A DNA stretch of 64,000 bases from a virus (lineage: Duplodnaviria > Caudoviricetes), in the IMG/VR virus record IMGVR_UViG_3300032272_000008, positions 8,928 through 72,927 of that record; one strand, given 5' to 3'. The notes under the pieces are model-generated. The model ran no database searches. It was not told the DNA's origin and was given only the letters and a program-made list of their open reading frames with translations. Positions 4,591-39,114 of this stretch are shown in pieces. A program made the position numbers and the translations under genes. Within the stretch, counting starts at the first letter, position 1. Each line of letters begins with the position of its first letter.

Positions 4591-6207
4591 CTATCGTTGA
4601 GCGCACCACTTCTGGCCACGCATTGTTACAATCGTTCGCTTGCCGTTCGAGTATGTTACAATGTGAGAATGGTTCCAGCCGGTCAGTCCGCCTCGATTAT
4701 ATCCTTGATCGCGGGTACAGGAATGCCCCGCAAGATAGATGCCTTCATATATGCCTGCACCATGCTTGTCAGCGATGTTGGCTTTAGGACCCATCTTGGA
4801 AAATGATTTGATGTGCCCCTTTGCCCCGTTGGCACCTTTGTCACCGTGTAGCGCGTTCTCGATGTTGCCGCAAATAACAAATGATCCGGTGTTCGGAATG
4901 AACTGCACATTGTCGAGGTCATAGTCCTGCTTTCTGATGCCCCACTCAGCGGCGAGGAAGTTGTCTTCACGTTTCTTGATTGCTTTGTAGTAGGCAGTCT
5001 GTGCTTCAAGAAAGAACAATGCGTTGGCTGGATCGAAGCGGGTGTCGGCGGTCTTGAGCCACTTCTCGAATGCACGGTCATGATTACTGTCGATGACGAT
5101 GGACTCGCAGAACTCACGCTGAGTGCCTTCTAAGAAGCGTGCTGCATTGATGAACTCACCTTCGACGTTTGACTTGCCGTTGATGTGCATCTTGTACCAG
5201 TGATGCGGGTCCTTGACGTTGTGATGGTTGCGTCGGCGGAAGTCAATCACATCATGGAAGAATTGGTAAACCGGTTTCAACGTATCGAGCATATTATCTT
5301 CAACCATGACGATGCTGCTGAACTCAGAGTCGTATCCCCACGATCCGATCGCCGTATCGTAGTCCAATGTTTCCGCGTGGATGTCGCCCCAGGTAATCGC
5401 CTCAACAATTCCGCTACCCTCTGTAATGGCTCCGTCTGCCACATAGTTGTTCAGATCACAGAACGCACCATCTTTGTCAGCCGCGAGGTGGCGACAGAAG
5501 AAGTCACCTTCACTATCGATCTCAACGAGCACTGCGCCGATGACGTGATGGAATTCGGCTTTGATGCCAGCCTTCTGTTGAAGGTAGTTCGGCAACGTGA
5601 CGGCACCGGTTGTCATGATGATCTTTGGGTCGTCATGGAGCCGCGTGGGGACGCTTTCGAGAACCACCTTCGGGTGAGGAAGGATGGCCCACTTTTCACG
5701 CGTGTACGTCTGAAAACCAGATAGGGGATCGGTTGCAGTCGGTAGCGTGTTCATCTCACCGCAGAAGACCAACCGGCCATCGACATCGAACCGTTCATTG
5801 GAGATGTAGTCGGCGATGTCTGGGTGATAGATCGAGACGATGTTCTTGTCTTCGCGCGCCGTCGCCTGCATGTTGTAGGTGAAGCCGCTGATGTGGATGT
5901 TAGCATTCAAGTGGGCTGCGTATGCTTTAAGGTTCTCCATGAAGCCTTCGTGCACTGCGGTGTGGGCCTGGGCCGATGAGAAGATCCAGGTTTTGACAGC
6001 TGCGCCCCGCCGAGGCTTCTTTAGAGCCACCGGCTTGTTCTGGTTTTTCGTGGTGTAGGAGGCGGTAATTTTACGGTGTCGGCGTTGGAAAGTGACGCGG
6101 GCTATACCTAATCCCGTGGCGGCTTTGTTGAGACTGCCGTACGTCTTGACAGCTTCGAGGACTTCAGCGTCTGACATTTTCGCCAGAACAGGATGTGGAG
6201 CGGCCAT
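4591..6207 (-). CDS. N-terminal HTH plus calcineurin-like metallophosphoesterase, resembling the T5 A1 family
   Basis: Metal-binding motifs WGDIH, FFHD, DSNHD, HGD, GHS; HTH-like YGSLNKAATGLGIARVTF. The A1 similarity is from memory. Confidence 0.7.
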   Translation of the reverse strand: MAAPHPVLAKMSDAEVLEAVKTYGSLNKAATGLGIARVTFQRRHRKITASYTTKNQNKPVALKKPRRGAAVKTWIFSSAQAHTAVHEGFMENLKAYAAHLNANIHISGFTYNMQATAREDKNIVSIYHPDIADYISNERFDVDGRLVFCGEMNTLPTATDPLSGFQTYTREKWAILPHPKVVLESVPTRLHDDPKIIMTTGAVTLPNYLQQKAGIKAEFHHVIGAVLVEIDSEGDFFCRHLAADKDGAFCDLNNYVADGAITEGSGIVEAITWGDIHAETLDYDTAIGSWGYDSEFSSIVMVEDNMLDTLKPVYQFFHDVIDFRRRNHHNVKDPHHWYKMHINGKSNVEGEFINAARFLEGTQREFCESIVIDSNHDRAFEKWLKTADTRFDPANALFFLEAQTAYYKAIKKREDNFLAAEWGIRKQDYDLDNVQFIPNTGSFVICGNIENALHGDKGANGAKGHIKSFSKMGPKANIADKHGAGIYEGIYLAGHSCTRDQGYNRGGLTGWNHSHIVTYSNGKRTIVTMRGQKWCAQR

Positions 6208-8880: not shown

Positions 8881-8987
8881 GGGAAACTCCTGTGTCTTGA
8901 GTAAAGGTCGGGAGAGGCAGGTATAGGCGACCAAACCCTCTGCACTCTCCCTTGCGCGAGGGAAAGGAATTAAACCTCGCGCTGTTC

Positions 8988-38310: not shown

Positions 38311-38536
38311 ACGTGTCACAGCAATCTTTGTCGCAGAATCGCGTCAAGGAAAACACACCGTCCTGGATACCGACGAAGAACTAATCGTCGTGTTTCCTTA
38401 CGGGACGGAGCGTGTTGGCATGCGTTTCGATCGATTGATCATAACCTTTCGCCACAACAGCGAGAGACAAGCCCATTGGATTCGCCGCAACAGAATGGGA
38501 TTGAAGCCTGACGGTCTGCTGATTGAAACCTTTTAA
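38303..38536 (+). CDS. Small hypothetical protein
   Basis: GGAG RBS. Confidence 0.55.
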   Translation: MGRRVTAIFVAESRQGKHTVLDTDEELIVVFPYGTERVGMRFDRLIITFRHNSERQAHWIRRNRMGLKPDGLLIETF

Positions 38537-38589
38537 CCATGAGTGACATAGCCACTTGATTTTCATTTTGGCTGTGTTACAAAGATCTC

Positions 38590-39030
38590 GAAGACGTTGA
38601 AGCGTCATTGAACAAGAACGGATACGCCGGGGCAGTACCGGCCATCTCCACCACAAGTCTACGGAGGAACAGAAGGCAGTAGCCGTACCAGATCGAAATA
38701 GCTCAAGAAGCTCTGTGCATATGTGATACGGCCACTGCGGCGAAAGCCAAGCATGCCCGACACCGTATAATCACCTCAACGTGTATTTCATGCTGACCGC
38801 GCGCTCTGCCGTAGACTTCTGATGGGGATGAAATAGGTTCGACCGTTTTGGGTAGTGGAGTGGAGTTTTCCGGGTGATCTCGTCATAGATCGGACTGCTT
38901 AGTTGCAAACGACAACGAGGCTCTCTTACTCGCCGCATAGCCGCGAGTGGCGCAATGGCAAGCGTAGCAACAGAAGCTCTCACTGAGAGCAGGCCAAGGG
39001 TCGCCCACCATAAATGTTTGGTGGGAATTT
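38590..39030 (+). ncRNA. ssrA: Circularly permuted two-piece tmRNA, tag (A)ANDNEALLLAA*; outer ends approximate
   Basis: T-arm GCCGG-GGCAGTA-CCGGC (38626-38642), 3' acceptor CATCTCC-A-CCA ending 38653, 5' acceptor GGGGATG at 38824 (G3.U70), D-loop AAATAGGTTCGAC, resume codon GCA 38905, TAG 38938-38940. Confidence 0.95.
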
Positions 39031-39114
39031 AGGCAACCGGGAGCAGTTGGGAATCTGCTTATCGTAAGAAACAAAATCCCCCTATCTACCCTGACCAACG
39101 AGAAAGGAAAAGAC

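Follow-up and report, generated by a model that had tools for sequence, protein, structure and literature searches.

A long stem-closed intervening segment in the permuted tmRNA gene of a Caudoviricetes phage

We report here a permuted (two-piece) tmRNA gene of the alpha type, with a 170-nt intervening segment (IVS) between its acceptor and coding pieces, in the 64,000-nt stretch of marine phage DNA that was analysed (the window; positions 8,928 to 72,927 of the 72.9-kb IMG/VR virus record IMGVR_UViG_3300032272_000008). The gene and its parts, all on the plus strand and numbered from the first letter of the window, are as follows.

38560-39031, plus strand: permuted (two-piece) alpha-type tmRNA gene, tag ANDNEALLLAA followed by a stop (ARAGORN, Rfam)
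38590-38653, plus strand: acceptor piece (Rfam alignment and sequence)
38626-38642, plus strand: T-arm of the acceptor piece (Rfam alignment)
38643-38649, plus strand: acceptor 3' strand CATCTCC (sequence)
38650-38653, plus strand: ACCA end of the acceptor piece (sequence)
38654-38823, plus strand: IVS, 170 nt, G + C content 52%, lying between CCA and G1
38819-38823, plus strand: CTGAT leader directly 5' of G1, putative RNase P site (a TGAT ending is common in phage IVSs of at least 31 nt)
38824-39031, plus strand: coding piece, beginning GGGGATGAAATAGGTTCGACC (GGGGATGAAATAGG at 38824; sequence, ARAGORN, Rfam)
38905-38940, plus strand: tag open reading frame (ORF) in the coding piece
39005-39027, plus strand: terminal hairpin of the coding piece

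Results

The two Rfam covariance models for tmRNA_permuted and alpha_tmRNA both score above threshold at this gene and match over their full length: RF04321 at 38590-38940 with 75.1 bits (gathering threshold 47), and RF01849 at 38535-38984 with 71.2 bits (gathering threshold 50). The sequence has the hallmarks of a permuted tmRNA, with a CCA-ended acceptor piece 5' of a coding piece that starts with GGGG, and a tag ORF that ends in AA and a stop; GGGGATG (38824-38830) pairs with the CATCTCC strand and forms the G3:U70 pair. A first-pass annotation of this DNA had recognized the segment as the IVS of a permuted tmRNA, an identity that the ARAGORN call and the two Rfam scores bear out, and had placed it at 38654-38823, exactly the 170 nt between the ACCA end and GGGGATG.

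The record encodes DNA polymerase I, a helicase, rIIA, rIIB, the large terminase, and portal, tape-measure and tail proteins. The portal shares 41-46% identity with its counterparts in large siphophages that infect Alphaproteobacteria (the roseophage DSS3P8 group, Mesorhizobium phage Cp1R7A-A1, Sphingobium phage Lacusarx and phiCbK-like Caulobacter phages) and in a Microcystis phage. The 72.9-kb record has a tmRNA yet no tRNA gene, whereas tmRNA-bearing relatives have tRNA arrays. Its first 205 nt, which lie outside the window, are repeated at its very end, which is also the end of the window, with 204 of 205 positions identical (L132:1-205 and L131:1487-1691). The record, a 37%-complete fragment by the CheckV estimate, may therefore cover the whole genome (about 72.7 kb), either terminally repeated or assembled as a circle.

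The minimum free energy (MFE) fold of the IVS consists of a closing stem and three hairpins, and contains all the stems that the first-pass annotation had listed; the extension of the closing stem by CAGA/TCTG that it had described is indeed seen, as one of two competing extensions.

38655-38664, plus strand: closing stem, 5' arm AAGTCTACGG, beginning 1 nt past CCA (ten perfect pairs)
38809-38818, plus strand: closing stem, 3' arm CCGTAGACTT (MFE fold)
38663-38669, plus strand: GGAGGAA, resembling a Shine-Dalgarno (SD) sequence, directly inside the closing stem; no start codon follows (sequence)
38676-38738, plus strand: hairpin H1, GCAGTAGCCGTA with TACGGCCACTGC, A-C mismatches within and a small apical hairpin (pair probabilities 0.94-1.0)
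38739-38748, plus strand: hairpin H2, GGC-GAAA-GCC (pair probability 0.77)
38750-38794, plus strand: hairpin H3, AGCATG/CATGCT around ACAC/GTGT (pair probabilities 0.9-0.97)

The pairs of the closing stem have probabilities of 0.97-1.0 (0.72 for the outermost pair), and the stem is predicted to extend the acceptor stem when the full precursor is folded. The arms of H1 pair 38676-38687 with 38727-38738, and the outer arms of H3 pair 38750-55 with 38789-94. The whole IVS has an MFE of -55 kcal/mol, which in comparison with dinucleotide shuffles corresponds to z -2.5 (3 of 200 shuffles) and z -2.9 (3 of 500). Excised from the segment, H1 and H3 gave z -2.7 and z -2.2, values for sub-regions that were picked after the fact. 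The 144-nt interior without the closing stem reached only z -0.8 (107 of 500 shuffles were at least as stable), so that the fold signal of the IVS rests largely on its closing stem. The reverse complement folds better (-68.5 kcal/mol, z -4.2), partly because the A-C mismatches of H1 are replaced by G-U pairs in the minus-strand RNA, which gives a 15-bp helix; the signal is therefore not specific to the RNA strand, and the fold has no strand-specific mark of selection acting on the RNA. The loop of H3 bears a perfect TATAAT (38766-38771) without a -35 partner, and also AUCACCUC (38770-38777), which we take to be identical to 8 nt of the 3' tail of 16S rRNA; GGAGGAA and AUCACCUC can pair with each other over only about 4 bp.

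Searches of Rfam at E up to 10 matched tmRNA alone over 38600-38880 and, with the isolated IVS as query, which avoids clan competition with tmRNA, returned a single minus-strand artefact (E=7) of a miRNA-hairpin model. The view of the first-pass annotation that the segment belongs to no known family is upheld at this cut-off; the ribozyme among the roles that it had proposed is not, as no ribozyme family in Rfam matches the IVS. ARAGORN found no tRNA in the IVS. Its longest ORF has 15 aa, short of the 25 aa that, together with an SD and a start codon, we took to define a mini-protein gene. A promoter and terminator scan found neither element within the IVS and no promoter-like site on the minus strand, and the segment holds no duplicated tmRNA parts and has no similarity to the remainder of the gene.

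A blastn search of 50,697 phage genomes returned no homologue of the whole tmRNA gene and, at E up to 10, only chance matches to the IVS, of which the 72.9-kb record itself has no second copy. Pattern scans of IMG/VR gave 105 matches with an IVS of 150-180 nt, none resembling that of the window, and a scan with GGGGRYGAAATAGGTTCGACCG led to nothing but one unrelated group, in which the IVS has 8 nt; two scans of a metagenome collection gave zero matches to the tmRNA or IVS of the window, and an index of look-alike sequences likewise yielded none. When 169 unique IVSs were grouped into 68 sequence clusters, the segment remained a singleton among the 168 others. Its neighbourhood is similarly isolated: the upstream 77-aa ORF has no relative, and the downstream 114-aa ORF has one (75% identical) on a TARA ocean contig that stops 122 nt upstream of the gene, so the overlap is uninformative; the nearest portal relative in IMG/VR (L107, 52% identity) has no tmRNA in 74 kb. 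The flanking genes being orphans too, the lineage is simply an unsampled one, and the absence of IVS homologues is not evidence of neutrality.

The frequency of IVSs of this length was determined with the pattern CTCCACCA, N150-180, GGGGRYGAAATAGGWTCGAC. It occurs at 7 places in 185,579 prokaryote species (one genome each), two of them Rickettsia IVSs (L118 and L121; 163 and 171 nt) that bear long inverted repeats at their ends and may resemble Rickettsia palindromic elements, and one a phage-type contig binned into a metagenome-assembled genome. The same pattern occurs at 105 places in IMG/VR, where IVSs of 31-60 nt gave 114 matches and those of 1-30 nt and of 90-120 nt (the latter scanned with NN replacing RY) at least 120 each. 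Among 146 evenly sampled Alphaproteobacteria, the median span of the RF04321 match, estimated by eye, was about 217 nt (IVS about 35 nt); only 5 spans reached 290 nt and only 1 reached 340 nt, compared with 351 nt for the gene in the window. The sample includes one unpublished genome (G049) with an ordinary span of 223 nt, on which no conclusion rests. In 20 host tmRNA genes that were read directly, the IVS measured 6-133 nt. The first-pass annotation had named, as one of the findings that would tell against it, that equally long structured spacers are routine in host genes; the frequencies of about 1 in 146 Alphaproteobacteria and 7 matches in 185,579 species are the opposite, and spacers as long as this one are routine in phage tmRNA genes but not in hosts. 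In the published exceptions (PMC11915505), a tRNA-Ala lies in one IVS and a repetitive element in another.

The closing stem proved to be a general property of phage IVSs of at least 31 nt. For the purpose of this analysis we set up an informal class, the stem-closed IVS frame, in which a closing helix of at least 7 bp starts 0-1 nt past CCA and ends 4-5 nt before G1. The IVS of the window belongs to it, with 10 bp and offsets of 1 and 5 nt, just as in L032 and L044. Among the unique viral IVSs of 150-180 nt, 66 in number, the closing stem has a median of 11 bp and at least 7 bp in 97% of cases (counted with 0-3 nt allowed from CCA and 0-8 nt from G1); for IVSs of 31-60 nt its median length is 10 bp. 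The base of the stem has the consensus N-A-A-R...Y-U-U-N-UGAU in 219 unique viral IVSs of at least 31 nt, which the window fits with CAAG...CUUCUGAU and AAG/CUU at the stem base. Among the matches listed, UGAU directly precedes G1 in 84% of viral IVSs of at least 31 nt versus 12% of short ones.

The closing helix covaries in the roseophage group DSS3P8/V10/RcXuper/MAL1/MD18, whose IVS interiors are unalignable, and also in a second phage family (model R1, below). In Ruegeria phage RpAliso the IVS is a 30-nt hairpin, while its relatives have 98-111 nt. The covariation in the roseophages and the short RpAliso hairpin suggest that the closing stem is selected, and that the interior of phage IVSs, a variable loop insert, is probably dispensable. 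The interpretation of the segment as a structured passenger RNA, advanced in the first-pass annotation, is partly supported: the IVS is real and far longer than that of most hosts, but its closing stem is what phage IVSs of at least 31 nt usually have, and its interior is no stabler than shuffles.

Other phage tmRNA spacers carry cargo of several kinds. An ORF of at least 25 aa is present in 62 of the 66 unique viral IVSs of 150-180 nt (L002-L106, e.g. L010:2669-2785). As read by eye, these ORFs have an SD of their own, directly past the closing stem's 5' arm or overlapping it in part, and for many of them the TGA within the UGAU tail is the stop codon. The largest family consists of hydrophobic peptides of 38-44 aa (MKNPLV..SKWMFKAYI.WSICADI.LL.GI.YL.FF; MKNPLVREVSKWMFKAYILWSICADITLLAGIIYLVFF), and its stop is this TGA. 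Synonymous and non-synonymous codon differences within the family number 2078/1450 in frame, against 402/2940 and 297/3070 out of frame, a pattern that points strongly to coding. The peptide has no PHROG match, and its only Pfam match is sub-threshold (DUF2542; E 0.014, 16.3 bits, cut-off 25). A complete tRNA-Arg(UCU) is nested in another phage IVS (L437:4705-4781, inside the tmRNA at 4595-5014).

In the 90-120 nt class, only 16% of the matches listed have an ORF of at least 20 aa. This size range includes a family of IVS RNAs of 103-109 nt (model R1), in which the closing helix and three hairpins form a 4-way junction. Its seven distinct members (L399:1642-1747, L419:5779-5885, L445:4805-4909, L476:6106-6214, L494:3638-3740, L498:10151-10256 and L420:4331-4436) have compensatory changes at 19 of 30 pairs and share the invariant single-stranded or junction motifs UUGAACUAGAAGUGG and ACUAAGUU. 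The family is absent from Rfam. Its covariation indicates that selected, stem-closed, non-coding IVS cargo exists, which keeps the idea of a passenger RNA alive in general; the IVS of the window itself does not match the model (best score 2.6 bits, E=4). R1 does match the acceptor piece of the window tmRNA weakly, with 10 bits at 38584-38642, a hint that the family may derive from a T-arm or be of tRNA-like origin.

Structured RNA also lies outside the IVS in a related phage: DSS3_MAL1 (MN602268.1) has a GOLLD RNA (L112:925-1388, 160.5 bits) about 60 nt upstream of its tmRNA gene, with a tRNA-Arg nested in it. The tmRNA region of Phaeobacter phage MD18 (MT270409.1, 21713-22253; L365) is 98.8% identical to that of DSS3_MAL1 and about 124 nt longer; the extra sequence lies outside the IVS, which has 98 nt in both. 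Part of the MD18 tmRNA gene is overlapped by an annotated hypothetical CDS of the opposite strand.

Discussion

Our judgement leans, if only slightly, towards an expanded intervening hairpin, whose frame would take part in precursor folding and processing and whose orphan, non-coding interior would be discarded during maturation. This reading starts from the identity of the gene, the bounds of the IVS, its predicted stems, the generality of the closing helix and its covariation in other phages, and the lack of an ORF, a tRNA, an Rfam family or, in the collections searched, a homologue. To these we add, by inference, the dispensability of the interior and the following steps. The functional part would be the frame, i.e., the 10-bp closing helix running from 1 nt past CCA to 5 nt (CUGAU) before G1. 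Stacked beneath the acceptor stem, this helix would join both halves of the tmRNA in one precursor and expose both cleavage sites. RNase P would cleave 5' of G38824, and the end at A38653 would be made by an endonuclease and 3' trimming. The interior of about 144 nt (38665-38808) would be a lineage-specific, non-coding, hairpin-rich loop insert, lost with the loop on maturation. Three features speak against such a discard: H1 is predicted to be a strong, nearly perfect hairpin of 12-15 bp, as might be expected of a selected RNA; the layout as a 4-way junction recalls the covarying R1 family; and one could argue that a 170-nt insert retained in a compact phage genome suggests some use.

A rather unlikely alternative is the passenger small RNA of the first-pass annotation: tRNA-processing enzymes would free a putative functional interior, clamped by the stem at both ends, that would accumulate and act in trans, for example as a decoy, sponge or antisense RNA. 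Precedents for cargo are the compensatory changes in R1, a selected non-coding IVS, and the tRNA-Arg inside the L437 IVS; long IVSs are commoner in viral contigs than in cellular genomes, and the predicted excised fragment would have overhangs of merely 1 nt and 5 nt beside a GC-rich 10-bp helix. The interior itself, however, folds no better than shuffles (z -0.8) and less well than its antisense strand, falls outside the R1 model at 2.6 bits, and has no homologue in the phage genomes, IMG/VR or the metagenome collection. That 38665-38808 specifies a new, lineage-restricted sRNA, with the phage piggy-backing on tmRNA maturation and a putative RNA of about 165 nt acting in trans, we consider unlikely; a possible route of such action would be the exposed SD-like GGAGGAA together with AUCACCUC in the loop. 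GGAGGAA could instead be the relic SD of a decayed mini-protein cassette that has lost its start codon and frame. Its position is equivalent to that of the SDs in ORF-bearing IVSs, ORFs of at least 25 aa being the rule at this length (62 of 66) and the coding signal of their largest family being strong, and the frame following it (AAG at 38672) is broken only once by a stop codon before it closes at the TGA within CTGAT. A single stop in 55 codons combined with a 1-in-3 coincidence of frame is nevertheless within chance, no similarity to other IVS peptides was noticed at the protein level, and the G + C content and hairpin density of the segment are unlike those of the AT-rich coding cassettes; we regard decay of a cassette as quite improbable.

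The better fold of the reverse complement (-68.5 versus -55 kcal/mol, z -4.2), with H1 forming a 15-bp helix through G-U pairs on the minus strand, would also suit an element acting at the DNA level or in antisense, i.e., a palindrome-rich insertion, such as a small element of mobile or recombination type, or else an RNA of the minus strand, at a tolerant site, and the long terminal inverted repeats of the Rickettsia IVSs L118 and L121 (163 and 171 nt) are a possible parallel. Two mismatches are too few to carry weight; the minus strand has no promoter-like site, and neither the 72.9-kb record nor any of the phage genomes searched contains a further copy. This explanation is a very improbable one.

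Taken alone, the locus amounts to an orphan tmRNA spacer of unusual length, whose function is at most putative. Together with the other phage genes, it belongs to a pattern in which the spacer of the two-piece tmRNA is a stem-framed slot for very diverse cargo (mini-protein genes, a tRNA and conserved structured RNAs), unlike cellular tmRNA spacers, which are nearly always short. We did not find this phage cargo-slot pattern in the literature searched. As an example of it, the IVS of the window is of the weakest kind, given its lack of homologues and of statistical support for its interior. Should the non-coding cargoes be set free as stable RNAs, tmRNA maturation would provide phages with a route to sRNAs that needs no promoters, terminators or splicing of its own, and if the sRNA reading is true, phage tmRNA spacers would serve generally as a place from which both RNAs and mini-proteins are expressed without splicing.

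In comparison with known systems, the IVS of the window occupies the same place as those of permuted alphaproteobacterial tmRNAs (RF01849, RF04321; PMC11915505), between the encoded CCA and G1, and like them is absent from the mature RNA; it differs in its length (170 nt against a median of about 35 nt) and contains neither the tRNA-Ala nor the repetitive element of the exceptions. The OM43 phage Melnitz and the pelagimyophages (PMC9004378) likewise bear a permuted alpha-type ssrA with a long stem-closed IVS, although they are T4-like myophages, whereas the phage of the window is siphovirus-like and related to DSS3P8, Lacusarx and phiCbK-type phages. The IVS of Methylophilales phage Melnitz (MZ577097.1, L390:481-622) has 142 nt, a closing stem AAACACTT/AAGTGTTT and a TGAT tail, and contains a GGAGAAG SD followed by an ATG-initiated frame, while that of the window has no ORF. 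The GenBank record of Melnitz annotates only 'tmRNA SsrA' across the spacer and leaves the IVS reading frame unannotated.

DSS3_MAL1, MD18, DSS3P8, vB_RpoS-V10, RcXuper, Cp1R7A-A1 and Lacusarx, with portals 41-44% identical, are members of the same broad phage group. The IVSs of these roseophages and rhizobiophages are likewise GC-rich, ORF-free and multi-hairpin, with a closing helix of 8-14 bp and a TTGAT end, but they are shorter (74-111 nt; 30 nt in RpAliso) and have no sequence in common with that of the window. The R1 family shares with it the closing helix with three hairpins, the location in a phage tmRNA IVS and the position outside Rfam; the window fails the R1 model and lacks its invariant motifs. 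The stable RNAs of phage T4, species 1 and 2, are small structured RNAs of unknown role that are co-transcribed with tRNAs and freed by tRNA-processing enzymes; they sit between tRNA genes and not inside a tmRNA.
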